64,000 nt of DNA, taken from assembly GCA_049522195.1 (NCBI GenBank), contig JBEKOB010000009.1, forward strand, positions 1,953 through 65,952, read 5' to 3'. Source of the DNA: Bacteroidota bacterium. GTDB taxonomy: Bacteria; Bacteroidota; Ignavibacteria; UBA10030. The notes under the pieces are model-generated. The model was not told the origin of the DNA and did no database searches. It saw nothing but the letters and a program-made list of their open reading frames with translations. Made by a program: the position numbers and the translations under genes. This document shows, one piece after another, positions 7,470-62,364 of this stretch (positions are counted from its first letter, which is position 1; every line of letters begins with the position of its first letter).

Positions 7470-7503
7470 GCAAGAAGTGAGACGTGAGAGGTGAGATGTG
7501 GGG
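7470..7503. repeat. Heptamer tandem tract (GTGAGAN), left arm of the four-helix-bundle cassette
   Basis: GCAAGAA GTGAGAC GTGAGAG GTGAGAT GTGGGG. Confidence 0.8.
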
Positions 7504-7510
7504 CTCTCGC

Positions 7511-7870
7511 CTAGCTTTCCTTCTTGAATCGGATGAGCCCGCTCAGCAAGCCGTCAACTTGGTTTAATTGATTCAGCACGCGAGACATTTGTGTCGAATC
7601 CAACAGATTGAGGACCTTGCAGAGTTCAAGCTGTGTATCAAGTTCGCTGAGTGATCCGCGTGCTATTGAGTAGAACTGAATAGATTCCTTTTTGCTCTGT
7701 CTCGCAGCACCCTCCGCGATGTTGCTTGGGACTGATATCGCTGCCCTCCGCATCTGAGACACGAGTCCAAATCGCTCCTCTGCAGGGAGTGAAGCGGTGG
7801 CTTCGTAGACCATTTTCACGAGAATAATTGCTTCCTTCCAGGCGTTAAGCTTCTTGTGTGCTTTTTCCAC
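7511..7870 (-). CDS. Four helix bundle protein (23S rRNA intervening-sequence protein family)
   Basis: HKKLNAWKEA, LPAEERFGLVSQMRRAAISVPSNIAEGAAR, ARGSLSELDTQL; GTG at 7870 preferred, TTG at 7885 possible. Confidence 0.93.
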   Translation of the reverse strand: MEKAHKKLNAWKEAIILVKMVYEATASLPAEERFGLVSQMRRAAISVPSNIAEGAARQSKKESIQFYSIARGSLSELDTQLELCKVLNLLDSTQMSRVLNQLNQVDGLLSGLIRFKKES

Positions 7871-7896
7871 AGTATCCACCTTCAAAAGGTCATTCC

Positions 7897-7924
7897 ATCT
7901 AACATCTCACTTCTCCCTTCTCAC
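7897..7924. repeat. Heptamer tandem tract, inverted right arm of the four-helix-bundle cassette
   Basis: ATCTAAC ATCTCAC TTCTCCC TTCTCAC, the reverse complement of GTGAGAN units. Confidence 0.75.
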
Positions 7925-7955
7925 GCTTTTCCGAATACCGTCTTTCGCTGACGAT

Positions 7956-9257
7956 TCATTTCCCTCCGGCTTTGATTGTTTCTAATCCATGGGCATTTGG
8001 CCCGCTTTCGTTGCGGCGGAGCAGGAAGGCAAAGAGGAAACCAAAGAGTCCAAGCGAAGAGAAGATCCACATGCCGAGCGAATAGCCACCAGGGTTCGTC
8101 GCACTTGCACCTGTATAATCATTTGCCCAGCCAATGAGGAAATTGAATCCGGCGAGGCCAATGTTTTGTATCAAGGTCATTAACCCATACGCCGTTCCAA
8201 GCTTCGACTGATCGACGAGGTAACTGACAGACGGCCACATGATGGCAGGGATGAGCGAGAATGCTACTCCCATCATCGCCATCGGGACAAAGAGAGAGAT
8301 GTGCGTATAGGCCATGATCAGATAGACAGGCGTCAACAGAATTGAGCCAAACATCATGAACAACGATCGTTTCCCGACACGATCGACAAGCAGGCCGAAA
8401 AGCGGTGTCGCAACCATAGCAAACGCCGTCAACATACTCGAGAGGAAGCCGCCCATTTCGCGGGAGGTGCCATGGGCTTCAATGAAGAATTTGACCGCGA
8501 ATGTCTGGAATGGGAAAATACCAGAGTAAAACGTGATGCAGAGTGCTACGATATACCAGTAGGATGTCCCGAAATTGAACACGTCCCGCCATTTTACTTT
8601 GTCAGTTTCACCAGCCACACCAATCTGATACTTTTCTTCTGCACGGCTTTCAAGGATCCAGTAGATAAGCGCCCCGATCACGCACACCACACCAAACACA
8701 ATGGTGATCAGGAGGGGGCCACGCCAGTGCTCATAGTAGCTCGCTGCCCACGAGGGAGAATTCAGAGCAGCAAATGAACCGAGGCGGGCAATCGTGAGAT
8801 TGATACCGAAGGCAAAGCTGAGTTCCTTCCCCTTGAACCATTTGGCGATGGCAGTTGTGACGGCCACGATCAGTGATTCAGCCCCAAGCCCGAACACAAG
8901 CCGGCCCGCGGCCATGACTGTCAGCGTATCACTCAGAGCCGTGATGACTGCTCCGAGCAGACAGAGCACTGCAAAGATGAACGTCGATTTCTTCGTCCCC
9001 AGCCTGTCGATGATAAACCCGCCGATCAAGACCATGAAGATATTCGGGACGCTGTAGATTCCCTGGAGCAACCCGATATCCGAGTCGGTAAAGTGCAGCT
9101 GTTTCACAAGAACATCCGCCAGTGGACTGATAGCGTCATAAATATAGTAATTGCCGAACATCGCCAGACTGATGAACACCAGCACAATCCAGCGAACGAG
9201 GCGAGGTGGTTGAGGTTTGGAAGATCCTCCGGCAAGAAATGGGTTAGGTTCTGTCAT
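7956..9257 (-). CDS. MFS transporter, MFSD1-like
   Basis: About 12 hydrophobic segments; motif A (GGFIIDRLGTK, GLLVDRVGKR); FGNYYIYD, GRLVFGLGAESL, WFKGKELSFAFG, GTAYG. Confidence 0.9.
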   Translation of the reverse strand: MTEPNPFLAGGSSKPQPPRLVRWIVLVFISLAMFGNYYIYDAISPLADVLVKQLHFTDSDIGLLQGIYSVPNIFMVLIGGFIIDRLGTKKSTFIFAVLCLLGAVITALSDTLTVMAAGRLVFGLGAESLIVAVTTAIAKWFKGKELSFAFGINLTIARLGSFAALNSPSWAASYYEHWRGPLLITIVFGVVCVIGALIYWILESRAEEKYQIGVAGETDKVKWRDVFNFGTSYWYIVALCITFYSGIFPFQTFAVKFFIEAHGTSREMGGFLSSMLTAFAMVATPLFGLLVDRVGKRSLFMMFGSILLTPVYLIMAYTHISLFVPMAMMGVAFSLIPAIMWPSVSYLVDQSKLGTAYGLMTLIQNIGLAGFNFLIGWANDYTGASATNPGGYSLGMWIFSSLGLFGFLFAFLLRRNESGPNAHGLETIKAGGK

Positions 9258-9282
9258 AGCCTGAGTTTAAGAAATGGGGAGT

Positions 9283-9382
9283 GTGTAAAATGAGATGAAG
9301 GAGCAAGATCGTGAGACGTGAAACGTAAAAAGTAAGACGGGAAACGATTGCCTCGTCTCCCGTCTACCATCTCACTTCTACT
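9283..9382. repeat. Inverted pair of heptamer tracts without cargo
   Basis: GTGAGAC GTGAAAC GTAAAAA GTAAGAC GGGAAAC, 9 nt, then GTCTCCC GTCTACC ATCTCAC TTCTACT. Confidence 0.75.
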
Positions 9383-9384
9383 CT

Positions 9385-10842
9385 TTAGTTCACGTTTTTC
9401 AGAATCTCGAGCAAGTAACGCCAGAACTTGTCAACGGTATCGATATAGATCTTCTCGTCCGGCGAATGAACGGCCTGCAGCGTCGGTCCGAAGGAAACCA
9501 TGTCGATGCCCGGATATTTCTCACCGATGATGCCGCATTCGAGTCCTGCATGAATCGCCTTGACAGCCGGTTCCTTGCCATACAGTGACTTATACGTCGC
9601 CTTCGCAGTTTTCAGTATCGGGGAATCGAGATTCGGCTTCCAACCCGGATACCCTTCGTTGAGTTCGACTTTGGCGCCGCCGAGCTCGAACACGCAACCG
9701 ACCATCTGGCAGACTTCAACGATCTCCGATGCAACTGAACTGCGCTGGCTTGTGATGAGAGATATCTTTCCTTTTTCGGTGCGGATAACAGCGACATTTG
9801 TTGATGTCTCGACCAAGCCAGGGATGTCCGCGCTCATCTTGATGACACCATGCGGCAACGCTGAGATCGTCTTCATCACCAATGCCTGCTGTTGCTTCTT
9901 GACCACCTTCCCCTTTTTCACATCTTTACGCACTTCGAATTCAATCGCAAGATCCGGTTCCACACTTGCCAGCTCTGCCTTCGCGGTATGCTCGTATGCC
10001 GCCACAACTTTCTTCGCCTGACTCAACTTTGCTGCGGGGATGTAAACCAAAGCCTCGGATTCGCGAGGAATCGCGTTGCTCTTGTTGCCCCCCTCAATAT
10101 TCGCAAGCCGCACACCGAGGTCGCCCAACGCAAGCAGCACGCGGTTCAATATTTTAATGGAATTGCCACGACCCTTATCAATTTCCAGCCCCGAATGTCC
10201 CCCCTTCAACCCCTTCACGCGGATCACCGTGCAGACAGTCTTTCCCGGTGCATTTTCAAATGCGACTTTCCACGTACCGGTGGTGTTTCTTCCACCTGAG
10301 CAACCGACATACAGTTCACCCTCTTCCTCCGAATCAAGGTTCATCAGAATTTTGCTCTGGACAAATCCCGGCTTCAGGTTGGTCGCACCGGTTAACCCGG
10401 TTTCCTCGTCGATCGTGAAGAGGAACTCCAGCGGCCCGTGGACAAGCGACTTGTCTTCCATGATCGCCAGATTTGTGGCAACTGCGACCCCATTGTCCGC
10501 TCCAAGGGTTGTCCCATTTGCCATCATGACATTTCCGTTGCGGACAAGTTCGATCGGGTCTTTTTCAAAATCGTGGACCTTATCCTTGTTCTTCTCGCAG
10601 ACCATGTCGAGATGGCCCTGGAGGCACACCATTGGACGATTCTCGTATCCTGGCGACGCCGGCTTTCGGACGACGACGGTCAGGAACTTGTCCTGTTTTG
10701 CTTCAAGGCCGAACTCCTTGGCTTTCTGCATTACATACGCTGCGATTTGTTTCTCATTCTTCGACCCGCGTGGAATCTTGCTGATCTCAGCAAAATACTT
10801 CCACACGCCTTCAGGCTTCAAACCTTCAATTGGGTTTGGCAT
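9385..10842 (-). CDS. pepD: Aminoacyl-histidine (cytosol non-specific) dipeptidase PepD, M20
   Basis: LQGHLDMVCEK, TTLGADNG, DEETGLTGA, NLDSEEEG, GGHSG, IHAGLECG, HSPDE. Confidence 0.95.
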   Translation of the reverse strand: MPNPIEGLKPEGVWKYFAEISKIPRGSKNEKQIAAYVMQKAKEFGLEAKQDKFLTVVVRKPASPGYENRPMVCLQGHLDMVCEKNKDKVHDFEKDPIELVRNGNVMMANGTTLGADNGVAVATNLAIMEDKSLVHGPLEFLFTIDEETGLTGATNLKPGFVQSKILMNLDSEEEGELYVGCSGGRNTTGTWKVAFENAPGKTVCTVIRVKGLKGGHSGLEIDKGRGNSIKILNRVLLALGDLGVRLANIEGGNKSNAIPRESEALVYIPAAKLSQAKKVVAAYEHTAKAELASVEPDLAIEFEVRKDVKKGKVVKKQQQALVMKTISALPHGVIKMSADIPGLVETSTNVAVIRTEKGKISLITSQRSSVASEIVEVCQMVGCVFELGGAKVELNEGYPGWKPNLDSPILKTAKATYKSLYGKEPAVKAIHAGLECGIIGEKYPGIDMVSFGPTLQAVHSPDEKIYIDTVDKFWRYLLEILKNVN

Positions 10843-10865
10843 TGGTAGATCTCCTTAAGAATTCG

Positions 10866-11234
10866 TTATTGCTGAGCACTTGTTACTATATCGTAAAGGT
10901 TCACAAGATCCGATTTCTCCAGCATCAGAAGAAATTTCCGAATGCGCTCCTGAGCGGAGGCTGCAGTTTCCCCAAACTCGGCTGTCATCTTGTCCGATAT
11001 CTCGGCAACCGTCGTCTTGCCATCGCACATTTTCCAGACGAAACTGCCAAGGGCATCCAGCTTGACGCGCACAACGGGATACCTCATATGGGGCACAAGC
11101 CACCGCACCAAGAGTTCATTACGGAATTTCGGCACCAGGACGACGATGCATCCGTTCTCCCCCGTCTCCCAAGGAACACACTGTACGGGAGTAAGTTCCA
11201 AGAGGTTGACTGATTTCCGCGATTTACGTCCCAT
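10866..11234 (-). CDS. PqqD-family (RRE-like) small protein
   Basis: VKLDALGSFVWKMCDGKTTVAEISDKM...FGE...ERIRKFLLMLEKSDLV is a PqqD winged-helix pattern. Confidence 0.8.
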   Translation of the reverse strand: MGRKSRKSVNLLELTPVQCVPWETGENGCIVVLVPKFRNELLVRWLVPHMRYPVVRVKLDALGSFVWKMCDGKTTVAEISDKMTAEFGETAASAQERIRKFLLMLEKSDLVNLYDIVTSAQQ

Positions 11235-11264
11235 TCAAGTTGGCTGCCGAACCGCTATGACAAA

Positions 11265-11300
11265 ATGAGCGGAGCAAACCTTGTGGCCTTACTCCGCTCA
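11265..11300 (-). terminator. Hairpin or weak terminator between the OPT and PqqD-like genes
   Basis: TGAGCGGAG...CTCCGCTCA followed by TTTTG on the minus strand. Confidence 0.5.
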
Positions 11301-11321
11301 ACATCAATTCACATCAATCGA

Positions 11322-13430
11322 TTACATCATTGCCGTTGGAGGAGCCGGCTCATCCGGAGAGCCAGCCTTCTTGATCGGAACAAAGATCAAATAGCTCGCC
11401 AGAACGGCGAAGAACGCGATCGCCATGTACGGAGCGACATCATTGAATGCCTCGATAGCCCAGAACTCGGGCTTTTTGCCCATCTGGTCGAAGATGAACA
11501 CGACCGCAGCAATGAACAACCCCATCAATGCCTCCCCTGCGATCAATCCCGACGCAGCAAGGATTCCCGCATTCTCAACTCGAGCCTTCTGTGCGTCGTT
11601 GAATCCTTTCTTCTTTGCCCGCTTATCGACCACTCCGCGGATAAGGCCGCCGATGAAGATTGCGAAGGTCGTCCCAAGTGGAAGGTACATGCCGACGGAG
11701 AACAGCATTGGGCTCCGTACCTTGATGAGGATCAGTACGAATCCCATTGCGATTCCAACGATGACCAACGGCCATGCCATCTCACCTCCGACAATTCCCT
11801 GAGACAGAGCTGCCATCAAGCCGGCCTGAGGAGCAGGTAGGTTTTTGCTTCCGAAGCCTCCTGTCAGCGGATTCAGAGCCAGATCTGAATTGTGAAGAAC
11901 ATAGAGCGGGAAGAACATCACAAGTCCTGCGAGAATGACGCCAATGATGTCACCGATCTGCATCTTCCAAGGCGTTCCTCCGAGGATATGTCCAACTTTC
12001 AAATCCTGCAGCATCTCGCCCGCGACAGCAGACGAGACACAAACGACCGCTGCAACTCCGAGAACCGCTGCAACTCCCTGAACGCCCTTGACTCCGATAA
12101 TTACCATCGTCAGTGCAGCGACGACAGTAGTGGCAAGCGTCAGACCTGAAATGGGATTATTGGAGGAACCAATCATGCCAACAAGGTTGCCCGAGACCGC
12201 GGCGAAGAAGAAACCGGTGACGAGCATAACTATCGCAGCCAGGATCGCTCCACCGATAGCCTGCGTGAAGTAGAAATACAGCGCGATCATAAGCAGGAAG
12301 ACAACCGCGATCCCGAGAAGCACCACTCGGAAGGAAAGGTCTTTCTCGGTCCGGAGCGTCGTCGCTTCCGAAGAAGCCGCCTTCCGAACGTCTGCGACAC
12401 CTCGCTTGATTCCAAGGACGAGGTTCTTGCGCATCCGCCACAACGTGAAACAGGCTCCGACGAGCATACCACCGACAGCGATTGGTCGCACGATGTATCT
12501 GTACAGATGGCCTGTCAACGCCGGCCAGTTTTGGTACCCGTCAGCAGCCGTGTACTTGTCGATCATATGCGGCCCCAGGAAAAACACCAGGAGAGGAACG
12601 AAGAGACCCCATGCCAGCAGTCCGCCGGCGAAGTTGAGTGCACCCAGCTCGGGACCTATGATGTATCCTACGCCGATGTAGGCAGGCGTGATGTCAGGGG
12701 CAGAGAATGTCGTGATCCCACCTGCAGGGACAATATTCGCGTCTTTGGTGAGACCGAGTCGGACGAGGCTTTCTTTTAGCTTGCCAACGGGGATTTGAAA
12801 GGCGTTTTGATAGAAGAAAACGCCGAGTCCGTCTTTAGTGCCAATTTCAGCCCTCGAAAGAAGCTTCACCAGCGCTCCGACACCCATCGCCCTGAAAAGC
12901 TGCATAGCGGCTTCGGTCCCGCGCTGTCCCGCTTTGTGAATCTCGCTTGCCGCGACCGATTCGGGAAACGGCAGTGAGTGGTCTTCAACCATGACCTTGC
13001 GCAGAATCGTTACGAACATGATTCCGAGAATACCGCCGAGAATCATCAATGCGCTCGCGGTGAGATACTCGCTTAGCATATTCGCGGTGTCGAACTTCCA
13101 GAGCTGGAGCACGACAAACGCGGGGATCGTGAAGATCGCGCCGGCCGCAACGGACTCTCCAATCGAGCCGACGGTACGGGCGAAGTTCTCTTCAAGAAGC
13201 GAGCCCTTGTAGATCCGCAGGATTGCCATGCCGATGACTGCAGCCGGGTACGTCGCAGCAATCGTCATGCCTGCTTTCAAGCCGAGGTACGCATTCGCCG
13301 CTCCGAGAATGACGCACATGATCAGGCCGATGATCAGTGCGCGGAGGGTGAACTCCTTCATGTCGGTCTCAACAGGAACGAACGGTCTGAATGCCGGTTC
13401 GCCCCCGCCACCGCTCTTCGTATCTGCCAT
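11322..13430 (-). CDS. OPT family oligopeptide transporter
   Basis: ANAYLGLKAGMT, LPFPESVA, GSSNNPISG, LQDLKVGHILGGTP, LPAPQA, SGLIAGEAL. Confidence 0.95.
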   Translation of the reverse strand: MADTKSGGGGEPAFRPFVPVETDMKEFTLRALIIGLIMCVILGAANAYLGLKAGMTIAATYPAAVIGMAILRIYKGSLLEENFARTVGSIGESVAAGAIFTIPAFVVLQLWKFDTANMLSEYLTASALMILGGILGIMFVTILRKVMVEDHSLPFPESVAASEIHKAGQRGTEAAMQLFRAMGVGALVKLLSRAEIGTKDGLGVFFYQNAFQIPVGKLKESLVRLGLTKDANIVPAGGITTFSAPDITPAYIGVGYIIGPELGALNFAGGLLAWGLFVPLLVFFLGPHMIDKYTAADGYQNWPALTGHLYRYIVRPIAVGGMLVGACFTLWRMRKNLVLGIKRGVADVRKAASSEATTLRTEKDLSFRVVLLGIAVVFLLMIALYFYFTQAIGGAILAAIVMLVTGFFFAAVSGNLVGMIGSSNNPISGLTLATTVVAALTMVIIGVKGVQGVAAVLGVAAVVCVSSAVAGEMLQDLKVGHILGGTPWKMQIGDIIGVILAGLVMFFPLYVLHNSDLALNPLTGGFGSKNLPAPQAGLMAALSQGIVGGEMAWPLVIVGIAMGFVLILIKVRSPMLFSVGMYLPLGTTFAIFIGGLIRGVVDKRAKKKGFNDAQKARVENAGILAASGLIAGEALMGLFIAAVVFIFDQMGKKPEFWAIEAFNDVAPYMAIAFFAVLASYLIFVPIKKAGSPDEPAPPTAMM

Positions 13431-13467
13431 ATCAGTCTCCTTCGCTTAGGGTTTAGAGAAAACTGGG

Positions 13468-14367
13468 TCAACGAATGAAAATCGCCTTGGTGATGTACCA
13501 CGCCATCGCAGGGTTTTCTTTCAGACGGCGGGTCGAGTAAGCATACCATTGTTCTCCGTACGGCACGTAAACGCGCAGCCTGTGTCCGGCCTTCACTATA
13601 TCATCACGTCGCGTTTCGCGCACGCCGAGGAGCATCTGAAACTCGTATTGCGTTGGTTTCATACCGAGCTTTTGGATAAGCGTCATCGCTCCGTCAATGA
13701 GAAAGTCGTCGTGCGTCGCGATTCCGACATACGATCCCCCCTCAAGAATGATCTGCAACAACTTCAGATAATTGTCGCGAATCTCCTGGCGACCTTTGTA
13801 CGCAATCGACGGCGATTCATTATAAATGCCTTTGCACAGACGGAAGTTCGCACCTTCCTTAACCAATGAGCGCACATCAGATTCGCTCCGGTGCAGGTAT
13901 GCCTGTGTGACAACACCGGTGTTGGAAAATCCCTCACGACGCATCTTGCGGTATATCTCGAGAGTGTTGTCAGTAGTCTGTGCATCCTCCATGTCGATCC
14001 GGACGAAATTCCCGAGTTTTCGGGCTTCCTCGAGGATCATGCGGATATTCTGGAGCCCCAAATCTTTATCGATGCTCAACCCGAGCTGCGTAGGTTTTAT
14101 CGATACGTTGGAGTTGAGAGCATTCTTATGGATGGCCTGGAGAATTGGCAGGATGTTATCACGAACCGCCTGCGCCTCACGGGCATCTTTCACGTCCTCG
14201 CCCAGGAGGTCCATGGTCGTCATCATACCCGCCTGATTGAGCCGTTTGACAGTCTGGAGACCATCGGCGAGAGTCGTGCCGGCAATATACCGTCGCGCGA
14301 CACGGCCCACGATGGCCTTCGGGATCAACGGCATCGCAGTTACAATGAACTTATTCAGAAGGGACAT
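13468..14367 (-). CDS. Monofunctional proline dehydrogenase
   Basis: RYIAG, DLLGE, RIDMED, RLCKGIY, IATHD, EFQMLLG, YVPYG, RRLKENP. Confidence 0.95.
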   Translation of the reverse strand: MSLLNKFIVTAMPLIPKAIVGRVARRYIAGTTLADGLQTVKRLNQAGMMTTMDLLGEDVKDAREAQAVRDNILPILQAIHKNALNSNVSIKPTQLGLSIDKDLGLQNIRMILEEARKLGNFVRIDMEDAQTTDNTLEIYRKMRREGFSNTGVVTQAYLHRSESDVRSLVKEGANFRLCKGIYNESPSIAYKGRQEIRDNYLKLLQIILEGGSYVGIATHDDFLIDGAMTLIQKLGMKPTQYEFQMLLGVRETRRDDIVKAGHRLRVYVPYGEQWYAYSTRRLKENPAMAWYITKAIFIR

Positions 14368-14461
14368 AGAAGATATTCAATGAGTGAACAACGCGGAAGG
14401 AATGCAGCGAAAGATGTGCAGTGTGCAAATATCAGAGCTGCAGACCCAATACGGCGGAAAA

Positions 14462-14490
14462 AAGATAGCCACACAACCCAAGAAAAGCAA
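14462..14490 (-). promoter_or_regulatory. Candidate sigma70-type promoter for the PRODH-OPT block
   Basis: TTGCTT-N17-TATCTT. Confidence 0.5.
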
Positions 14491-14523
14491 CTAAAAAGCC
14501 CTTCATCCCTGCTTCGATCATCG

Positions 14524-15879
14524 TCAGAAGTGGACCACAAATCCTACTCTTGGCTCAATTCGTTTCTGCGACTCATAGCCGGTGACCTTTCCTGTCGCCT
14601 GATCGTGAACTTCGGCAAACGTCCATTGATACAGAATCGATACGACAAGATACGGGAGAGGTTTATATCCTGCTTGTGCGTATAAGAGCGAGTTGTTATC
14701 AAGTTTGAAAATGGATCCCACATTCTTCTTGTCATAGCCAGCATTGAGAAGAATGCCTGGAAGGGCAGTCAGCGTCTCGAGTTCGAGATGAAGTGTGCCG
14801 CCATTCGGCTGTCCGACCGGCGCCTGATATCCACCAAGAATATTGAAGGTGTTGAGAATGCTGATCAGCAATTCTCCAAAATAGCCCTCATACGATTGCG
14901 CACCTTTCAGCATCTGGGCCTTGCTTGTGAACCTCGTCGTGTCGAGACGCTGGTATCGGTCTCGCTCGTAGAATGCATCGAAGTAGGATGGAATGAAGTG
15001 ATTTCCGACAAACCTTCTCTCGTATTTCGCGTCGAGTGTCAGTAGGCCGAGTCCCCTTAATTCAAGATTGAGCCCGACTGCTTCACCACTGCCGTACGTA
15101 AGTATTTTCGCGTAGTCCGCGTACAGAGTTGAGTGGACAACTTCATGCGAGAGAAGCGGGAAACCGATGTCAGCCCCGACAATTGAAAGAGCCCCGTTTC
15201 CCTGGGCGCTCCGAATACTCCCCAGCGCGTCTCCCCACGTTTGATTCGCGTTCGCGTTAAGGTCCGAAGCGAAGGTCACTCCCGTTTCGAGCTTGCCTAT
15301 GATCGGAATCGGCGCAGCGTCGGTGAACTGCAAAGGCCTGGTGTAACCACGAATCCCGAGGATTCCTCTTCCCGCGATATCGCTGTACATCGACTCAAAG
15401 CCGACCTTCTGAAAATCGGCGTCAAACTCAACTCCCACTTTCCTCAGGTCATAGCTCGCCGTGTTCCGATACATATAGATGATGGATCCATGACCAATCC
15501 GTGAGTAATCCAGTGCACCTACGCGGGCATACCATGGGTCATGCTTTGTGCCATACCGGACATAACGAATAAGCTGGACGTAACTGTACGCGTTTTTGAA
15601 ATCCTCGTGCCGGATCTTTCCATCTTCTCCAACCCGGACGTTGATATCGAGTCCGACGCCGATCTTCCCAAAAGAGACCTCGGGAGTAAGATGAAAGAGA
15701 TAGTACGGTTTTCCATCGATAAACGTCATTCCGACGCCGCCGGTGATCGTCTGTTGATCCTGCAATGCTGAGAGTTGTGAGGGTTGCTGAAGAGGTGACT
15801 GAGCGGACAAATGATGGAGAGGGAGGATCAAAATTCCGCTCAACAGGATCAGAAATATGAGGACGGAATTTAATTTCAC
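14524..15879 (-). CDS. Hypothetical protein, probable outer-membrane beta-barrel
   Basis: Signal peptide, alternating amphipathic strands, terminal ...RVGFVVHF; GTG start abuts the spmB stop. Confidence 0.6.
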   Translation of the reverse strand: MKLNSVLIFLILLSGILILPLHHLSAQSPLQQPSQLSALQDQQTITGGVGMTFIDGKPYYLFHLTPEVSFGKIGVGLDINVRVGEDGKIRHEDFKNAYSYVQLIRYVRYGTKHDPWYARVGALDYSRIGHGSIIYMYRNTASYDLRKVGVEFDADFQKVGFESMYSDIAGRGILGIRGYTRPLQFTDAAPIPIIGKLETGVTFASDLNANANQTWGDALGSIRSAQGNGALSIVGADIGFPLLSHEVVHSTLYADYAKILTYGSGEAVGLNLELRGLGLLTLDAKYERRFVGNHFIPSYFDAFYERDRYQRLDTTRFTSKAQMLKGAQSYEGYFGELLISILNTFNILGGYQAPVGQPNGGTLHLELETLTALPGILLNAGYDKKNVGSIFKLDNNSLLYAQAGYKPLPYLVVSILYQWTFAEVHDQATGKVTGYESQKRIEPRVGFVVHF

Positions 15880-16428
15880 TCAGGCACCGAACAGTATGCG
15901 GCAGATCAGAACTGCACCGAGCATGCCAAAGACATCTGCAATCAGTCCGGCCGGGACCGCGTGGCGCGTGTTCTTGATCTGGACCGAGCCAAAATAGACG
16001 GCGAGGACATAAAACGTTGTCTCTGAGCTGCCGTACATCGTCGATGCAAGAATTCCGATAAACGAATCGGGGCCATGGACTTTCATAAGCTCCGTCATGA
16101 TCCCGAGCGATCCGCTTCCCGAGAGGGGTCTCATCAACGCCATCGGAAGCGTTTCGGGCGGCATGCCGATAAGGTTTGTGGCAGGCGCGAGGACGGTGGT
16201 CAGTAATTCCATGGCGCCGCTTGCGCGGAAAATTCCGATAGCGCACAGCATCGCCACTAGATATGGGATAATGCGAACAGCAGTGGTAAAACCGTCTTTC
16301 GCTCCTTCGACGAACACTTCATAGACCCGGACTTTCTTGACGATACCCCATCCAAGGAAAATGAAGAGCAAGAGCGGGATCGCAACGATGGAGATCGTGT
16401 TGATGATAGCACGGAAGAGATCACCCAT
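15880..16428 (-). CDS. spmB: SpmB-family (nucleoside recognition/gate) membrane protein
   Basis: VYEVFVEGAKDG, PYLVAML, RPLSGSGS, GSSETTFYVLAVYFG. Confidence 0.9.
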   Translation of the reverse strand: MGDLFRAIINTISIVAIPLLLFIFLGWGIVKKVRVYEVFVEGAKDGFTTAVRIIPYLVAMLCAIGIFRASGAMELLTTVLAPATNLIGMPPETLPMALMRPLSGSGSLGIMTELMKVHGPDSFIGILASTMYGSSETTFYVLAVYFGSVQIKNTRHAVPAGLIADVFGMLGAVLICRILFGA

Positions 16429-17422
16429 GGGATGCCTCCTTTCCCGGCTCCGTCTCAAAATCCTTTCTGTACCGCGGAAGCCTCTGGAGGAGCTTGGCCG
16501 CTGTCACACCGGCAACCGTTGCGCACATGGCGCCGAAGATCGACGTACCAATGATAATTCCGGGATTCGCTGAACCTGCCGACGCGCGCACAGCGATGGC
16601 GGTCGCTGGGATCAGTATCAGTCCTCCTGTGTTGATGGTCAGAAAGGTGACCATCGAGTTGGTGGCAGTCCCCGCCTTCGGATTGAGTTTGTTCAGTTCC
16701 TCCATCGCTTTCAGGCCGAGAGGGGTCGCTGCGTTGCTGAGGCCGAGCATGTTGGCCGCGATATTCATGATCATGGCACCAATCGCAGGATGGTCGGTGG
16801 GGATATCGGGGAACAATCGTTTGGTGACGGGCGTGAGCATCCTGGTGACAATCTTCAGGAGGCCGGCTTCCTCGGCGACCTTCATCACACCCAACCATAG
16901 CGCCATGATACCGATGAGGCCGAGAGCAATCGTCACTGCCGTCGTTGCATAATCGAGCGCTGCCTGCGTCACGGCCTTCATCTTGACAAAGCGGATGGGT
17001 TCAATGACGACCTGGACTCTGGCAGTCTGCTGGTCCGGCGCTACGGTCATCGATCGTACAGACCCGGTCAGTTTATCCTTGTTCGCAGCAGACTTTGCCA
17101 TGTCCTTCCAGCGATCCGGCGTTGCCGGGCCGATGGGAACAGCGATCGGCGACTCTCCCGCAGAGACCACGCCAATTACGACCGGCTGGTGTATTTCGGA
17201 GGTGGCTGTTGTGACACCGTAGAAGGCATTGAACGTCTCGGCCGTGAGCACGAGGTCCCCTTCCCACGTTTGTCGCAGAGGCGTGGGAGACTTCTGGATG
17301 ACGAGGGAGGCCTCAATCGGAACGCCGTTCCGATACGTGTTCTGCACTTCGTCGCGCACATCATTTCCCACTGCAACAAGAATGCCTATTGCAATGAGCG
17401 AGATCCAAATGTAGTTGAGCAT
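16421..17422 (-). CDS. spmA: SpmA-family membrane protein with a soluble insertion
   Basis: MLNYIW, ALWLGVMKVAE, NMLGLSNAATPLGLKAMEEL; about 120 aa hydrophilic insert after TM1. Confidence 0.9.
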   Translation of the reverse strand: MLNYIWISLIAIGILVAVGNDVRDEVQNTYRNGVPIEASLVIQKSPTPLRQTWEGDLVLTAETFNAFYGVTTATSEIHQPVVIGVVSAGESPIAVPIGPATPDRWKDMAKSAANKDKLTGSVRSMTVAPDQQTARVQVVIEPIRFVKMKAVTQAALDYATTAVTIALGLIGIMALWLGVMKVAEEAGLLKIVTRMLTPVTKRLFPDIPTDHPAIGAMIMNIAANMLGLSNAATPLGLKAMEELNKLNPKAGTATNSMVTFLTINTGGLILIPATAIAVRASAGSANPGIIIGTSIFGAMCATVAGVTAAKLLQRLPRYRKDFETEPGKEASHG

Positions 17423-17599
17423 AGATAGTGTCGTGATAGGAATTGGAATCGGATTGGCTGGGTGCGAGTAAAGCTAATTCTTTTCGTCCCAAAATCAAGA
17501 AGAAAGTCCCTCCGGAGCGGTTCATCCTCCTCCTTTGCTATGAACCGGGAAATCTGTATCTTACTTTGAACGCACGACGAATTCTTTTTGGGCGATCCG

Positions 17600-18682: not shown

Positions 18683-18702
18683 CTACGTGAAGGGCCTGGG
18701 CA

Positions 18703-19341: not shown

Positions 19342-19392
19342 TGGTCAATGGTCAACGACTAATTGACAATTGACCGTTCACCATTCACAATT
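19341..19392. repeat. Inverted heptamer tract between convergent genes
   Basis: ATGGTCA ATGGTCA ACGACTA ATTGACA ATTGACC GTTCACC ATTCACA. Confidence 0.65.
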
Positions 19393-20178: not shown

Positions 20179-20180
20179 AA

Positions 20181-21206: not shown

Positions 21207-21209
21207 AAG

Positions 21210-21318
21210 GGATCGGGAGATCGGACGATCTGGACATCGAATCATCTGTGAATCGTTAGATGATCAAATGGTGAGATGGCCAGATGAGTAGATGATTAGA
21301 TGACCCGATGGCTAGATT
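21210..21318. repeat. Inverted pair of 8-bp-period tracts
   Basis: GATCGGGA GATCGGAC GATCTGGA CATCGAAT CATCTGTG, then AGATGATC AAATGGTG AGATGGCC AGATGAGT AGATGATT AGATGACC CGATGGCT. Confidence 0.75.
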
Positions 21319-21326
21319 TCAAGGCG

Positions 21327-21890: not shown

Positions 21891-21901
21891 GGTACCCTCT
21901 A

Positions 21902-22711: not shown

Positions 22712-22727
22712 GTGCTACTGAGTCGTG

Positions 22728-25630: not shown

Positions 25631-25633
25631 ATC

Positions 25634-32520: not shown

Positions 32521-32523
32521 TTG

Positions 32524-56232: not shown

Positions 56233-56268
56233 TGGAGTAACCGCAATGGAAACGTGATCAGAATCGGA

Positions 56269-56493
56269 CTACTTCTTGCCAACATTGGAGACGAGCCAGA
56301 GGATGCCGCTCAGCAGCAGGCTCAGGACCAGACTCGTGACGATCGGGAAGTAGAACTCCGTATGGTCTTTCTTGATGTGGATGTCGCCAGGCAGTTTGCC
56401 CAGGAGGGGAATTTTGTCGAAGAACATCAGCACACACCCCACAGCAACCATCACAACACCGAAAACTACAAGTACTTTGCCCAAGTGCACCAT
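56269..56493 (-). CDS. DUF2905 family small membrane protein
   Basis: LGKLPGDI...FYFPIVTSLVLS. Confidence 0.9.
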   Translation of the reverse strand: MVHLGKVLVVFGVVMVAVGCVLMFFDKIPLLGKLPGDIHIKKDHTEFYFPIVTSLVLSLLLSGILWLVSNVGKK

Positions 56494-56500
56494 AACACAA

Positions 56501-56572
56501 TTGGTTTTGAGTTTGGAGTTTGGGGTTTTGAGTTTGCAGGTCGTAACTCAAGACTCAAAACTGAAAACTCAC
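56501..56572. repeat. Inverted pair of heptamer tracts (TGAGTTT type) without cargo
   Basis: TTGGTTT TGAGTTT GGAGTTT GGGGTTT TGAGTTT, 9 nt, then AACTCAA GACTCAA AACTGAA AACTCAC. Confidence 0.8.
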
Positions 56573-56579
56573 TACCATT

Positions 56580-57404
56580 TTACGTCCTTTTCACCAATTC
56601 TTTCATGATCGCCGTCATCTTTGGTTCGGCTTTGTTTGCGACGGCAATGACCTCTTCAAGCGTGATCGGCTTCAACGTGTCGGGGAAACACTCGTCCGTG
56701 ATGATCGACACTCCGAAGACTTTCATCCCCATATGCACCGCAACGATGTTCTCAGGGACTGTCGACATTCCTACTGCGTCAGCACCGATGGTTCGCAGAA
56801 AACGATATTCCGCTCTTGTTTCGAGATTCGGCCCCTGCATCGCGACATACACTCCCTTTTGAACCTTGATGCCGAGCTCCCGGGCAATACTCTCAGCCAT
56901 TGTGATCAGTTCCTGACTGTACGGTTCCGACATATCAGGAAAGCGCGGACCGAGCGAGTCGTCATTCGGGCCGATCAGCGGATTATCGCCAAGCAGGTTG
57001 ATGTGATCGGACATCAGCATGACATCGCCGCGGGCATACGACTGGTTGAGAGCTCCTGCCGCATTGGAAATGAGGAGCGTTTCGACTCCAAGGAATTTCA
57101 TCACCCGGACGGGGAACGTGATCTGCTTCATCGCGTATCCCTCGTAATAGTGGAAGCGCCCCTGCATTACGACCACTTTCTTGCCGGCGAGGGTCCCGAA
57201 GATCAGCTTGCCGTGATGCGACTCTACCGTTGAGACAGGAAAATGCGGGATGTCGCCATAGTCGATGACGGTCTCTTTTTCAATTTCCTGGACGAGGGCT
57301 CCAAGACCGGTTCCCAGAATTATGCCGATGGTCGGGGTTGCCAAGGTCTTCGTCCGGATGAACCGGACCGTTGCGTCGATATATGTATGGAGCTCACTTG
57401 GCAT
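56580..57404 (-). CDS. punA: Purine-nucleoside phosphorylase (trimeric type)
   Basis: [38 protein letters not shown]. Confidence 0.93.
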
Positions 57405-59010: not shown

Positions 59011-60429
59011 ATGTCAGGGCTCGACAACTTTGATGATGATGAGCACCTCCCTCGGCCCAACGACCGTTCGGACGATGATCTTCGTCGTTTTCGTGAGCAG
59101 CTGAGAAACGGCGAGAAGGACATCAACAACACCGAGGCCCTTGAGGAGATCATCCAGTTCTACTTCGAACACGGCCAGTTCGAGGAGGCCCTGCACTTTG
59201 TCGACCGGTTGCTCTCTTTTGAGCCATTCAGCAGCGACGCCTGGCAGCGGAAAGGGATGATCCTCAACAACCTATACCGCTATGATGAGGCCCTCACCTG
59301 CTACGATAAGGCACTCCAGCTCAATCCAACAGATCCCGAAGTCTTTGTGAACCGGGGTATCACACTCGATAACCTCAACAGGGTGGATGAGGCACTCCAG
59401 TCCTTCAACTCTTCTCTTGAACTCGAGCCCCTCTATGAGGACGCCCTTTTCCATAAGGGGGTGACGCTCGAAAAGCAGGAGAAATTCGACGAGGCGGTCG
59501 CCATCTTTCGTCTCATGCTCGACATGAACTCAGAGCACCCGGACGCCTGGTATGAGCTTGGATATTGCTACGATTTCCTCGAGAAACTCGAGGAATCGGC
59601 CAAATGCTATGACGAGCATCTCAACAGGGACCCGTACAATTTCAACGCCTGGTACAACAGAGGAATTGTTCTGAACCGGCTGGGTCAATATACCAAGTCG
59701 ATCGAGAGTTATGAGATGGCATTGGCGATCAAGGAGGATTTCCCTTCGGCGTGGTATAACAAGGGGAATGCATATGCAAATCTGGGAAGGCTCTACGACG
59801 CTATCGACTGCTTCAAGCTAACGTTGAAATTTGAGCCGGGGGATGTTCCCGCCTGGCACAATCTGGGCAATGCCTACGAAGAGCTGGGACTCTATAAAGA
59901 AGCGATTGCTGCCTTTTCGAACGCCCTCAAGTATGATGAGAACCACTACGAATCGTATTTCGGCAGAGGCAGCTGCTATGACGCTCTGGAGCAGCCGAAG
60001 AAGGCGTTAATTGAATACAAGAAGGCCATCAGCATCAATCCGGAATATGCAGAGCTCTGGCACGCAAAGGCAGATGCCGAATACAATCTGGGCAGGATCG
60101 AGGAATGTCTCGAGAGCTACCGGATGGTGCTGAAGCTGGATGCGTCGAACTCCGAGGCGTGGTTTGACTACGGGGATACTCTTTATGAGACGGGTAAGAT
60201 AATTGATTCAACAGAAGCTCTGAAGAAGTGCGTAAAGTTAACTCCTCAGTACGCTCCGGCACATTACACGCTTGCCAAGATTCATATCCTGTTGCACGAG
60301 CACAAGGCCGCGGTCGAGTCCCTCTCGCTCGCGTTCTCGCTTGAACCGGAGCTGATGAAACAGTTCAAGAAGGACTATCCGGATCTGAAGTCCCATCGCG
60401 ATTTCGCTCCCCTGTTGAAGAAGCAATAA
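59011..60429 (+). CDS. Tetratricopeptide repeat protein
   Basis: More than 10 TPRs (AWYNRG, AWYNKGNAY, AWHNLGNAY). Confidence 0.92.
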   Translation: MSGLDNFDDDEHLPRPNDRSDDDLRRFREQLRNGEKDINNTEALEEIIQFYFEHGQFEEALHFVDRLLSFEPFSSDAWQRKGMILNNLYRYDEALTCYDKALQLNPTDPEVFVNRGITLDNLNRVDEALQSFNSSLELEPLYEDALFHKGVTLEKQEKFDEAVAIFRLMLDMNSEHPDAWYELGYCYDFLEKLEESAKCYDEHLNRDPYNFNAWYNRGIVLNRLGQYTKSIESYEMALAIKEDFPSAWYNKGNAYANLGRLYDAIDCFKLTLKFEPGDVPAWHNLGNAYEELGLYKEAIAAFSNALKYDENHYESYFGRGSCYDALEQPKKALIEYKKAISINPEYAELWHAKADAEYNLGRIEECLESYRMVLKLDASNSEAWFDYGDTLYETGKIIDSTEALKKCVKLTPQYAPAHYTLAKIHILLHEHKAAVESLSLAFSLEPELMKQFKKDYPDLKSHRDFAPLLKKQ

Positions 60430-60432
60430 CCC

Positions 60433-60545
60433 TTCGTTATTCGAAATTCGATATTCGTCATTGGATATTGCCGGGAACTTCCGGCTCTTTCGAATTGAAT
60501 ATCCGAGACCGGGCCACGAATATCGAGCAGAGAATAGTAGAGGAT
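60433..60545. repeat. Inverted pair of heptamer tracts (TTCGATA type)
   Basis: TTCGTTA TTCGAAA TTCGATA TTCGTCA TTGGATA, then GAATATC...GAATATC GAGCAGA GAATAGT. Confidence 0.7.
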
Positions 60546-60602
60546 GAGCAGAGTTCCAAATGTCGTGAGAGGCAAAACTCTTCACGAGCACGAGGTTATG
60601 AA

Positions 60603-61469
60603 ATGAAGCTTCTTGGCGTCATAGGTCATCCGATTGCACACTCGCTTTCTCCGCTGCTGCACAACACCGCGTTTTCTCTGCTTGGGTTGGATTGCAGGTA
60701 TGAGGCATTTGACGTTGAGCCCTCCTCTCTTGGCACGGCGATCCGAGACTTTAAGGCGAAGGGATTCCTCGGATTGAACGTCACCATTCCGCACAAGGAG
60801 GCAATCGTCGAATTCGTCGATGAACAATCCGATGAGTCGAAAGCAATCGGAGCAGTCAACACGTTGATCTTCGACCGCGATCGAATCCATGGCGACAACA
60901 CCGACGTGTACGGCGTCGCAGCTTCGCTTGAAGAGTATCGACCCCGGATTCAAAAACAGCTTGCAGTGGTGATCGGCGCCGGCGGATCGGCGAGAGCGAT
61001 CATCTATGCACTTTGCAGCCGGTTTGCTCCTGCCGAAATTGTCATCGCGAATCGGGGCGAAGAGCGCGCGAAGGAGTTGATCTCAGAACTGAAGCCACAC
61101 GCGAAGCAAACGACGCTTCGGTCGGTTTCCTTAGCCGGTGGAGATTTCGACGCCCTCTTGCCGAAAGCAGCATTAGTGGTCAATGCTACGTCAGTAGGTA
61201 TGTTTCCGGCTGTCGATCAGTCGCCAGTCGGCGAACAGGCGAGTTTTCACTCAGATCAGATTGTGATGGACCTGATCTATACGCCACTTGAGACCAGGTT
61301 CCTGACCCAGGCTTCACGGTGCGGCGCGAGAACCATTAGAGGCCTGGAGATGTTCTTACACCAGGGAGCGCGATCATTCGAGATTTGGCTTGGCCGCCAA
61401 TTACCACTTGAGCAACTGAGGCCGGTGATCGTCAACGAATTGAAATCCAGACACACAACAGCGAAATAG
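60603..61469 (+). CDS. aroE: Shikimate dehydrogenase
   Basis: HSLSP, NVTIPHK, GAVNT, NTD, GAGGSARA, NATSVGM, DLIYTP. Confidence 0.96.
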   Translation: MKLLGVIGHPIAHSLSPLLHNTAFSLLGLDCRYEAFDVEPSSLGTAIRDFKAKGFLGLNVTIPHKEAIVEFVDEQSDESKAIGAVNTLIFDRDRIHGDNTDVYGVAASLEEYRPRIQKQLAVVIGAGGSARAIIYALCSRFAPAEIVIANRGEERAKELISELKPHAKQTTLRSVSLAGGDFDALLPKAALVVNATSVGMFPAVDQSPVGEQASFHSDQIVMDLIYTPLETRFLTQASRCGARTIRGLEMFLHQGARSFEIWLGRQLPLEQLRPVIVNELKSRHTTAK

Positions 61470-61474
61470 CATCC

Positions 61475-62326
61475 ATGCCCGATCAAACGCTGCAGAGAAA
61501 ACACGAAGACCTTAAGAACATCTTGCTTGAAATGGGAAGCGTCGCTATCGGCTTCTCAGGCGGGATCGACAGCACGCTCCTGATTCGAGTAGCAACCGAC
61601 GTGCTCGGAAATAGCGCGCTTGCCGTTATCGGCAGGTCGGAGACCTACCCGACCCGTGAGTTCGAGGAGGCGATTCAGCTTGCAGTGTCATTCGGCTCTC
61701 GATATCGGATAGTAAACACAGAGGAAACAGATAATCTAAAGTTCAGGGAGAACCCGCCTGATCGATGTTATTTCTGCAAAACGGAGCTGTTTGGTAAGCT
61801 GAACGTCATTGCTGAAGAAGAGGGAATCCGGTGGGTCGCCGACGGAACGATCGTGGATGATCTGGGAGATTTTCGCCCCGGCATGCGCGCGAAGAGCGAG
61901 CAAAACGTCCGGTCGCCACTCCTCGAAGCGGGCTTCACCAAAGCAGATGTGCGGACCTTGTCACGTGAGCTGGGAATCCCGACGTGGGACAAGCCGTCGT
62001 TTGCGTGCCTCTCGTCGAGATTTCCCTACGGCCACGGCATCACCAAGGAGAACCTCATGAAAGTAGATGCGGCGGAGACGTTTATGCGCGATCTGGGCTT
62101 CAGGTTCTTCCGTGTCAGGCATCATGACGACAAGACAGCCAGACTTGAGATAGGTCCCCAGGAATTTGATCGGATGTTTGACAGTGCCCTTCGCGAGAAG
62201 ATCGTCGATCATTTCAAGACTCTTGGTTTCGCGTACGTCACGCTCGACCTTCAAGGTTATCGGACGGGGAGCATGAATGAAGTATTGACAGAGGATGAGA
62301 AGAAGGAATATTTGGGAAGCAAGTAG
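61475..62326 (+). CDS. larE: ATP-dependent sulfur transferase LarE (TIGR00268-like)
   Basis: FSGGIDS PP-loop, NPPDRCYFCK, RPGMRA, ACLSSRFPYG, RVRHH, GYRTGSMN. Confidence 0.92.
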   Translation: MPDQTLQRKHEDLKNILLEMGSVAIGFSGGIDSTLLIRVATDVLGNSALAVIGRSETYPTREFEEAIQLAVSFGSRYRIVNTEETDNLKFRENPPDRCYFCKTELFGKLNVIAEEEGIRWVADGTIVDDLGDFRPGMRAKSEQNVRSPLLEAGFTKADVRTLSRELGIPTWDKPSFACLSSRFPYGHGITKENLMKVDAAETFMRDLGFRFFRVRHHDDKTARLEIGPQEFDRMFDSALREKIVDHFKTLGFAYVTLDLQGYRTGSMNEVLTEDEKKEYLGSK

Positions 62327-62364
62327 TGGAGTATGTGAGTAGATGAGTAGTGGAGTAGGTGTAG
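62323..62364. repeat. One-sided 8-bp tandem tract
   Basis: GTAGTGGA GTATGTGA GTAGATGA GTAGTGGA GTAGGTGT. Confidence 0.7.

Follow-up and report, generated by a model that had tools for sequence, protein, structure and literature searches.

The genome of an uncultured member of the Bacteroidota was found to contain about 300 short tandem arrays of 7- and 8-nucleotide (nt) units, nearly all of them in noncoding spacers, and some of these arrays form inverted arms around small genes of two protein families. The arrays are described here from a stretch of 64,000 nt, referred to as the window, which covers bases 1953 to 65952 of contig 9 in a draft genome of 4.36 Mb (173 contigs; G+C content, 52.7%; designated G000, with other genomes likewise cited by G numbers). 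Close strains of the source bacterium were present in peat and wetland metagenomes. The enrichment of the arrays, their architecture and turnover, and the association of their arms with PF05635 and PF13366 genes were observed directly, and a link between such gene families and arms of tandem units is apparently new, as far as could be found. We consider it probable, with some room for doubt, that the tracts belong to the known class of heptanucleotide simple sequence repeats (SSRs), a fast-turnover feature of the DNA, and that some of them form the arms of small-gene cassettes.

Genes were predicted with a crude caller based on open reading frames (ORFs) that was made for this analysis (3383 genes; 87.6% coding), and arrays were identified with Tandem Repeats Finder (minimum score, 30), with overlapping rows de-duplicated and expected counts taken from 5 shuffles. 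Intergenic DNA contained 224 period-7 arrays compared to 11.0 expected, and 76 period-8 arrays compared to 14.6 expected; the corresponding counts in coding DNA were 90 (67.0 expected) and 95 (85.6 expected). Relative to 10 dinucleotide shuffles, intergenic self-matching was elevated at lag 7 (z = +31.8), lag 14 (z = +16.6), and lag 8 (z = +9.0), and the autocorrelation of coding DNA revealed period 3 only. The arrays passed the shuffle control that a preliminary description of the window had proposed; they therefore exceed chance, and the feature is genome-wide. The 224 period-7 arrays comprised 84 distinct canonical heptamers, which were AT rich (unit G+C content, 36% versus 52.7% for the genome), and arrays were short (medians, 3.9 copies and 31 nt). 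Among 320 period-7 or period-8 arrays, 100 had an inverted partner within 150 nt, compared to 8 and 20 in the reverse-only and complement-only controls, respectively, so the palindromic layout is real yet limited to approximately a third of the arrays. The arrays had been described as usually possessing an inverted arm; this held for six sites in the window that fold and for these 100 arrays, but not for three plain arrays in the window or for the roughly 70% of arrays genome-wide that are armless.

A single site in the window contained cargo, as had been reported. There, an ORF on the reverse strand (positions 7511 to 7885; 124 amino acids [aa] as called) was predicted to encode a four-helix-bundle protein that matched TIGR02436 (119.5 bits) and PF05635 (23S_rRNA_IVP; 125.6 bits), with its nearest solved structure in Xanthomonas campestris (PDB 2GSC; E = 4e-28). 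Translation probably begins slightly further in, by a few codons, at VEKAHKKL. On the strand of the gene, the 3' arm (7473 to 7500, reverse strand) consisted of about four degenerate GTGAGAN units (Tandem Repeats Finder period 7, 4.0 copies), and the 5' arm (7897 to 7925, reverse strand; detected by folding and as a period-7 row at 7905 to 7924) was complementary to it. The two tracts would thus be the arms of one PF05635/TIGR02436 gene cassette; they were predicted to pair around the ORF in both the minimum free energy and the centroid fold of 7445 to 7960, and their flank complementarity score was 34, compared to 13 and 15 in controls. The cassette is located between genes encoding a major facilitator superfamily (MFS) transporter and a peptidase-M29-like protein. 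In the available portions of two sources, PF05635 proteins are described as an uncharacterized, Avd-like family encoded in rRNA intervening or insertion sequences (PMC10053308; bioRxiv 10.1101/2024.02.27.582315).

Synteny was assessed from the genomes of relatives; 80 MFS transporter loci from several phyla were of little use for orthology. In G004, of the same genus, synteny with G000 extended over window positions 6483 to 58817 at about 90% protein identity. Of 10 genomes from the same genus, 8 contained the gene downstream of the cassette, and the spacer upstream of that gene was compared among them. This spacer was reduced to about 10 nt with no array in G006 and held a CAGAACT array and other repeats with no gene in G005. 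Intact cassettes were present in G000, G004, G009, and G001, and in G009 the intact cassette was directly followed by the 3' end of a gene of G004 type, which had a 3' arm of its own. G008 retained only a G004-type 3' remnant and had a different upstream gene. The spacer of G003 contained a different ORF resembling a four-helix-bundle gene (by eye, unscored, and apparently frameshifted), with AATTGCC-type arms beside an old GTGAGAC-type 5' arm. In G012, which belongs to another genus, neither gene nor arrays were found. The proposal that cargo varies at orthologous sites was thus upheld here, with empty, array-only, differing-cassette, and remnant states among eight same-genus genomes. The window cargo was 63 to 67% identical to the same-junction copies in G004, G009, and G001, neighboring genes were 83 to 93% identical, and intact cassette proteins were 63 to 76% identical among themselves. 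As judged from these sequences, gene and arms appear to be gained and lost together, and cassettes appear to replace one another as units at this junction. Contigs from 4 metagenomes covering 6000 to 25999 contained no joint skipping the cassette; contigs drop rare variants, so this comparison does not address rare empty alleles. No RNA sequencing run was found to contain 6000 to 15999.

The association of arms with PF05635 genes extended beyond the window. Family PF05635 was present in 113 of 151 sampled genomes of the phylum, and 13 TIGR02436/PF05635 matches were found in G000, each with a called protein-coding ORF as a neighbor on one side or both. Both neighbors were called at 12 loci, and at 10 of these the gene was co-oriented with both. 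Flank complementarity was scored at thresholds of 20 and 24. Scores of at least 20 were obtained for 9 of the 13 loci (controls, 1 and 2), compared to 44 of 583 other genes of 80 to 180 aa, and scores of at least 24 were obtained for 7 of 13 (controls, 0 and 2), compared to 14 of 583 (odds ratio, 47; P = 3e-8). In larger samples, for which the single best-scoring locus per genome was used, arms scored at least 20 in 22 of 28 loci at the order level (controls, 2 and 5) and in 23 of 27 further genomes of the phylum with G+C contents of 32 to 58% (controls, 3 and 7). Cassette arms were visibly tandem heptamers whose unit varied by locus. An old cassette on contig 2 was found at one orthologous locus in five genomes from three genera and two families, with its AGCTG/CAGCT-type unit conserved and its copy number variable. 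Directly downstream of another four-helix-bundle cassette, a 50-bp-period array built of heptamers (7.1 copies) was observed at contig 33:42002-42357.

The 14 other high-scoring genes of G000 included 7 with GTTAGGC...GCCTAAC-type flanks, which we take to be integron attC sites, 2 of Y1 transposase type, 4 weak cases, and 1 gene of 163 aa; these 14 genes served as a positive control for the arm scan. The 163-aa gene (contig 13:42586-43077) lies between inverted TTCGATA-type heptamer arms (score, 31), matched no Pfam family, was not similar to the cargo protein, and may represent a third kind of cargo. Two other sets of candidate cargo were rejected as ordinary genes: a methyltransferase gene with a PAP2 gene and a gamma-glutamyltranspeptidase gene between distal arms, which belong to a large array family, and genes for PurS and DoxX that are flanked by arrays on either side.

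A second cargo family was found in the same setting. On contig 30 (45974-46390), a 138-aa PF13366/TIGR04256 gene (GxxExxY, PD-(D/E)XK fold) lies between inverted CGCCAAG units, and a second copy (contig 68:10598-10981) has ATCCGCG-type arms with a score of 34, compared to 14 and 14 in controls. Among phylum genomes, arms of PF13366 genes scored at least 24 in 25 of 30 (L279-L308; controls, 4 and 2). A CACAGAG-type unit recurred in many of the sampled PF13366 genomes. The PF13366 genes and their inverted arms often had a AACCACAGAG...CTCTGTGGTT motif that many of these genomes shared, and the arrangement resembles a small mobile element that encodes a nuclease. No support was found in literature passages for the encoding of GxxExxY proteins in rRNA intervening sequences. 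PF05635 and PF13366 cassettes would sit inside spacers across the phylum, mostly co-oriented with their neighbors. The preliminary description had envisaged a cassette system at operon junctions, which agrees with the PF05635 and PF13366 genes and with the window cargo junction but was not borne out at the other five junctions compared, which were free of cargo.

The preliminary description had placed tracts, with several degenerate unit types, at 12 coordinates, and for every one of them a row of period 7 or 8 lay there or no more than about 30 nt away. The tracts were also essentially intergenic, as claimed, and all window arrays lay between called ORFs apart from one overlap with the call of holA. 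Six window sites folded clearly better than shuffles (z = -3.5 to -5.7), one was marginal, and three were not better. Sites described below are on the reverse strand unless another assignment is given. The solo hairpin at 9296 to 9384 (GTGAGAC/GTAAGAC units; Tandem Repeats Finder row 9310 to 9346; fold z = -5.71 for 9296 to 9388) lies between the MFS transporter gene and a dipeptidase gene, and its unit family is that of the cassette arms. The MFS transporter gene itself (7956 to 9257) is flanked on both sides by arrays of one unit family. Relatives of this gene that were 70 to 87% identical were found in metagenome-assembled genomes titled Acidobacteriota, Gemmatimonadota, and Geothrix, whereas the orthologue in G012, of the same family, was only 55% identical, which suggests horizontal transfer of the transporter gene.

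A hairpin of AATGGTC/AATTGAC units at 19340 to 19393 (no strand assigned; rows 19340 to 19355 and 19361 to 19393; fold z = -3.80 for 19335 to 19395) is located between convergent genes. Next to it, an ORF at 18703 to 19341 (212 aa) had no Pfam or NCBIfam family, and only fragments of it are left at this position in G004, beside a different heptamer tract. Between holA and a peptidyl-prolyl isomerase gene, two period-8 arrays (GATCGGGA and AGATGANN) at 21211 to 21317 (rows 21211 to 21239 and 21274 to 21317) form a weak hairpin whose fold was marginal (z = -2.04; 21205 to 21322); the first row runs into the 5' end of holA as called, and the true holA start may be further in. A long imperfect hairpin of GAAATCC/TAAACAA/GAAGCAC-type units (32343 to 32511; rows at 32343 to 32399 and on to 32511; fold z = -4.10 for 32335 to 32525) occupies the spacer between fsa and an RNase E/G gene. 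Three sites surround structural RNA genes: a lone direct array of TGAGAAA type with no arm and no fold (34429 to 34455, detected by Tandem Repeats Finder; no strand assigned), which adjoins the signal recognition particle (SRP) RNA gene (34574 to 34674); a hairpin of AATTGGTT-type 8-mers (34724 to 34800; row 34724 to 34752; fold z = -4.00 for 34712 to 34812) between the SRP RNA gene and tRNA-Ala(cgc) (34821 to 34895); and a hairpin of AATTGCC/AATTGAC units immediately upstream of tRNA-Ala (34901 to 34937; 5.3 copies; fold z = -3.54 for 34893 to 34945).

A hairpin of GAGTTTT units at 56504 to 56571 (rows 56504 to 56536 and 56545 to 56571; fold z = -4.03 for 56495 to 56582) lies right behind the stop codon of a purine-nucleoside phosphorylase gene and ahead of a DUF2905 gene. 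The DUF2905 gene beside this hairpin (56269 to 56493) decays in congeners (L082-L089, read by eye), with nothing but the 3' part left in G004 and the frame interrupted by a stop codon in both G008 and G009. On the forward strand, a direct array of TTCGATA units (60433 to 60469; 5.3 copies) sits in the 38-nt spacer ahead of aroE and did not fold better than shuffles (z = -1.43), and a lone direct array of 8-mers (GAGTAGNT) follows larE (62329 to 62361; 4.1 copies; no fold, z = +0.79). The stretches with plain direct arrays were 34422 to 34462, 60428 to 60472, and 62318 to 62366. Behind the 8-mer array and larE, a separate strong hairpin (62355 to 62450; 16-bp perfect stem, loop of about 60 nt, fold z = -5.58) had no relatives elsewhere in G000 and no Rfam match.

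The position of arrays relative to genes was uneven. Array density was highest in convergent spacers (1.0 per kb), lower in tandem spacers (0.62), and lowest in divergent spacers (0.32). In tandem spacers, the median distance to the upstream stop codon was 36 nt (86 of 223 arrays within 15 nt), compared to 59 nt to the next start codon (39 of 223 within 15 nt). The arrays therefore cluster at the 3' ends of genes, away from promoter-bearing divergent spacers. This distribution bears on the suggestion that the tracts are phase-variation (contingency) loci, in which array length switches the expression of a neighboring gene. Copy number does differ between strains and species, as such loci would lead one to expect, but the arrays are rarest in the divergent spacers, are nearer to stop than to start codons, and flank housekeeping genes (ileS, holA, aroE, tRNA-Ala, and SRP RNA), and we regard this explanation as highly improbable.

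Proximity to stop codons and the high density between convergent genes would also be expected of RNA hairpins selected as terminators, 3' stabilizers, or RNase III or RNase E sites, with the periodicity as a side effect. The folding of six window sites and the predicted pairing of the cassette arms are consistent with that explanation, as is the persistence of complementary arms at the 56501 junction although the unit changes between congeners. Evidence for action at the RNA level was not apparent in the strand comparisons: on the sense strand of 84 hairpins in codirectional spacers, G:T oppositions (151) and A:C oppositions (149) were equally frequent, of 141 tandem spacers, 67 folded better on the sense strand and 72 on the antisense strand, and the base composition of the arrays on the sense strand was symmetric. 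With no G-U bias and symmetric folding, there is no sign of selection on one RNA strand, and the periodic-hairpin RNA signal offered in the preliminary description fails the G-U test proposed there and is not supported. In addition, most arrays are armless, arrays are often missing altogether from the corresponding junctions of close relatives, and a T run followed the hairpin only in the G001 copy among six hairpin-bearing 56501 loci. Selected RNA hairpins appear to be a distinctly unlikely explanation.

Arrays turned over rapidly at the other junctions that could be compared. At 9283, one arm was longer by about six copies of the same unit in G004, and G012 had no array. At 21210, the same kind of 8-mer was found in G005 and a different AACCAAT hairpin in G004. 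The hairpin at 32343 measured 218 nt in G000 and 177 nt in G004, and the spacer was only 20 to 24 nt in G005, G012, and G016. At 56501, a hairpin was present in 6 of 12 genomes, with units that differed (GAGTTTT, AAGTTCC, and AAGTTCA) and arms that remained complementary. The TTCGATA-type array at 60433 was not found in G005, G007, or G013. These five junctions varied solely in array presence, unit type, and copy number, and no cargo was found in any compared relative. Contigs from four other metagenomes had a replaced allele at 9225 to 9314 in all four cases, alternative joints at 19340 to 19380 and 21206 to 21352, and, in one contig (run X15), a 39-nt insertion of GTGAGAC-type units at 7458 to 7462.

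Some arrays had relatives elsewhere in the genome. The hairpin at 32343 belonged to a family with about 21 other spacers, each filled by a hairpin of about 180 to 290 nt, and matches within the family extended over 50 to 57 nt at 92 to 96% identity with the order of variant units kept. Relatives of the 19341 hairpin were found at 12 other places (up to 44 nt at about 93% identity), and stretches related to the 62329-62361 array were found at 4 other places. Six of 13 queried window stretches (7 of sites A to I) had no relatives elsewhere in G000. Individual arrays would change copy number by slippage; independent slippage would not recreate the order of variants, so at least the 32343 and 19341 families appear to have spread by copying as well. 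Of the features of miniature inverted-repeat transposable elements (terminal inverted repeats, target-site duplications, and many copies), the 32343 family was seen to have many hairpin copies. Copies of the 32343-type hairpin were also observed at contig ends (17:243, 62:115, 152:4582, 66:129, and 133:6844), where they adjoin shared sequences resembling the ends of insertion sequences (ISs); these repeats may be targets of IS elements, or else they may be what interrupts the assembly. In several genomes, heptamer tracts contained or adjoined a short palindrome rich in G and C (CCTGCCGGCAGGCAGG and near variants), including the G004 junction orthologous to 32306-32523, the G013 junction orthologous to 56233-56579, and, in G000, contig 45 near 31519 and contig 23 near 5280.

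Arrays outside cassettes were compared with the cassettes by unit content and by co-occurrence across genomes. Among 228 solo period-7 arrays, 141 had half or more of their 7-mers in common with the arms of the 12 resident cassettes, compared to 43 ± 10 (maximum, 65 in 200 draws) for sets of 12 cassettes from other genera. In 2081 nonorthologous pairs of cassettes from different genomes, the number of shared arm 7-mers rose with protein similarity (rho = 0.12, a value reached in 0 of 500 permutations; 19.4 compared to about 12 shared 7-mers for the most similar proteins). The co-occurrence sample comprised 37 to 100 kb per genome (G036 was left out, as its contig was only 4 kb). Nine genomes without TIGR02436, defined as having no match at an E value of ≤1e-15 (five of the nine were rechecked at ≤0.01, also with no match), contained 27 period-7 rows compared to 31.0 expected in 867 kb, and the excess was at most +3.3 per 100 kb in all nine. 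Fourteen genomes with at least six copies contained 83 rows compared to 38.4 expected in 1191 kb. Array excess was associated with copy number (Mann-Whitney test, P = 0.014; rho = 0.55 over 24 genomes, with relatedness ignored).

These comparisons, together with the turnover data, bear on the possibility that the arrays are pure by-products of slippage, which arise in neutral spacers and merely happen to surround genes with which they have no tie. Slippage has been proposed for such repeats (Mrazek 2007, as summarized in the available parts of PMC4679880 and PMC4692102), and whole-unit copy differences between relatives, the diversity of units, the lack of strand bias, and the existence of several gene-rich genomes with no array excess all fit it. 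It leaves unexplained the complementary flanks of cassette genes (22 of 28 and 23 of 27, versus 2 to 7 in controls; 7 of 13 versus 14 of 583), the order of variant units shared over 50 to 57 nt between spacers, the uniform lack of excess in the nine sampled family-less genomes, and the presence or absence of tracts of 200 to 500 nt as blocks at 32343 and site A. Slippage as the whole explanation is accordingly considered unlikely.

We infer that the cassettes have relatives without an ORF, or by-products, in the solo arrays and hairpins, and we infer the way in which cassettes move on the same footing. That solo arrays descend from, or depend on, the cassette genes is a tentative hypothesis. 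Equally tentative is a broader possibility, in which PF05635 proteins and, in parallel, PF13366 nucleases would be trans-acting partners of tandem-unit repeats, much as the RAYT (REP-associated tyrosine) transposases are of repetitive extragenic palindromic (REP) elements. A gene would move together with a pair of inverted arms whose unit type is specific to it, and the hundreds of solo arrays and hairpins would be nonautonomous offspring or binding sites. The whole would amount to a REP/RAYT-like system with an Avd-like protein that binds nucleic acid at its center. The cassette genes are apparently selfish, and we know of no catalytic activity for PF05635.

A RAYT-type Y1 transposase might instead mobilize the arrays directly as its cognate repeats in a REP/REPIN system. 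Some array families are indeed dispersed intergenic palindromes (about 22 loci for 32343 and 12 places for 19341), and G000 contains six PF01797 (Y1 transposase) matches. None of the six Y1 genes had heptamer arrays on both sides, their flanks being short palindromes of their own, and the copy on contig 71 has different REP-like repeats; a Y1-driven origin of the arrays is thus scarcely credible. The contig 71 gene (19891-20352) is RAYT-like and is flanked by several CACTCCTAACGGAGTG-type palindromes, a classical REP arrangement separate from the heptamers.

Several observations weigh against the interpretation of the tracts as heptamer SSRs that in part form cassette arms, or against the closer tie between cassettes and solo arrays. 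Within G000, 4 of the 13 cassettes were under the arm threshold, the 84 unit types far outnumber the 13 cassettes, and approximately 70% of arrays had no detectable inverted arm; the old cassette of G011 had no 5' arm. No transposase or recombinase was associated with the cassettes. Pairing of the two arms on one transcript, so that a stem surrounds the gene in the manner of an intervening sequence, would be expected from the predicted fold only, and the fold of the whole window cassette was no better than shuffles (z = -0.26). The contrast in 7-mer sharing is overstated, since a same-genus foreign set of 11 cassettes, less diverse than the resident set, was matched by 72 of 228 solo arrays; moreover, sharing is blind to direction (arms may seed arrays, or genes may land in arrays), and it is just as possible that the genes inserted into existing arrays, of which the cassette arms would be a random sample. 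The correlation between copy number and array excess dropped from a rho of 0.85 in 17 genomes to 0.55 in 24, G160 had 10 copies and 0 period-7 rows in 100 kb, and G066, G122, G146, and G012 combined many copies with little or no array excess. When four-helix-bundle proteins were compared by tblastn with 193 array-bearing spacers (68.5 kb), the sole hit with an E value of <0.01 was spurious, coming from a query whose N terminus reads through an array, and solo arrays were therefore rejected as ORF scars. The crude gene calls are a weak point of the analysis.

Heptamer repeats have been noted for decades with neither origin nor function assigned, and PF05635 is widespread and uncharacterized. 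The consistent association of genes and arms, in three nested samples with controls and in a second family, would make both questions testable. If the trans-acting hypothesis were true, it could explain the origin and patchy spread of heptamer repeats, including those of cyanobacteria, Xanthomonas, and Beggiatoa, and could reveal what the "rRNA intervening sequence protein" family does. A practical consequence is that heptamer repeats break short-read assemblies.

Among known systems, integrons resemble the cassettes in that small promoterless genes are swapped at a fixed place and are bounded by imperfect inverted repeats; integron attC sites have the cores GTTRRRY and RYYYAAC. The window arms had no attC cores, and the cassettes are single in operon spacers rather than stacked by an integrase. 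G000 does encode an integron integrase, IntI (TIGR02249, 485.9 bits; contig 144:1795-3419), the only match above the cutoff and on a different contig from the window (contig 9). It adjoins a small gene with GTTAGCC...GGCTAAC flanks, and attC-like flanks were found on contigs 58 (1514-21713), 8 (68393-68908), and 144, with at least five small family-less genes on contig 58 each lying between such repeats. REP/REPIN elements with their RAYT transposase share with the cassettes a small gene between inverted repeats that are also scattered as spacer hairpins, and genome-specific repeat families. They differ in that the flanked gene here encodes no Y1 transposase and the repeats are tandem arrays rather than a fixed palindrome.

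Short tandemly repeated repetitive sequences (STRRs) are heptamer repeats of heterocystous cyanobacteria, and the arrays differ from STRRs in the strict sense in their host, which belongs to the Bacteroidota, and in their units. The cyanobacterial octamer HIP1 occurred 198 times in G000 compared to about 66 expected, a count that does not fit a cyanobacterial genome. The preliminary description was right that heptamer repeats are already known as a class, and inverted pairs have been published as well (Rehm 2015, PMC4692102, as far as the available text goes). Heptamer arrays, their excess, and their length variation were reported by MacGregor (2015; PMC4679880), the accessible part of which also summarizes Mrazek (2007) and places TAACTGA repeats in Beggiatoaceae, cyanobacteria, and five Bacteroidetes. 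The arrays of G000 agree with the heptanucleotide SSR class in being short, head-to-tail, intergenic, and overrepresented, with copy numbers that vary between relatives, and in having a patchy phylogenetic spread with no known mechanism. They differ in having dozens of AT-rich units where the published genomes have one or three, in being palindromic in a third of cases, and in lying closer to stop than to start codons; TAACTGA, in contrast, is found just upstream of starts. No tie of the repeats to a gene family was found in the same portion of PMC4679880.

The GGGAATC arrays of Xanthomonas (Rehm 2015, PMC4692102, from the portion available) are mostly intergenic, and many occur as convergent inverted pairs with possible stem-loop or cruciform structures; their length varies between sister species, the single or paired type is kept, and their function is unknown. 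They resemble the G000 arrays in the close placement of two convergent arrays, as in 100 of 320 cases here, and differ in consisting of a single G-rich, quadruplex-forming unit, compared to 84 units with a G+C content of 36% in G000; no cargo or linked gene was found mentioned in that portion. Avd, the accessory protein of diversity-generating retroelements, is of the same fold family (PMC10053308, in part), but the cargo scored 29.5 bits against NF033474 (cutoff, 80), and no reverse transcriptase was encoded by the two flanking genes. A published link between a four-helix-bundle or intervening sequence protein and heptamer repeats was not found in a search that left subscription journals and supplements outside its scope.

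The 23S genes of 5 cassette-rich genomes of one genus were of normal length (2881 to 2888 nt), and true 23S intervening sequences were accordingly rejected for the cassettes. The 23S rRNA of Leptospira and Coxiella contains intervening sequences that encode PF05635 proteins. The likeness to these includes the PF05635 cargo, an ORF between inverted flanks able to pair (as predicted for the window cassette), sense orientation in a transcribed region, and the coexistence of ORF-bearing and ORF-less forms. The difference lies in location and build: the window cassette is inserted in the spacer between protein-coding genes, and its stems are made of tandem heptamers.

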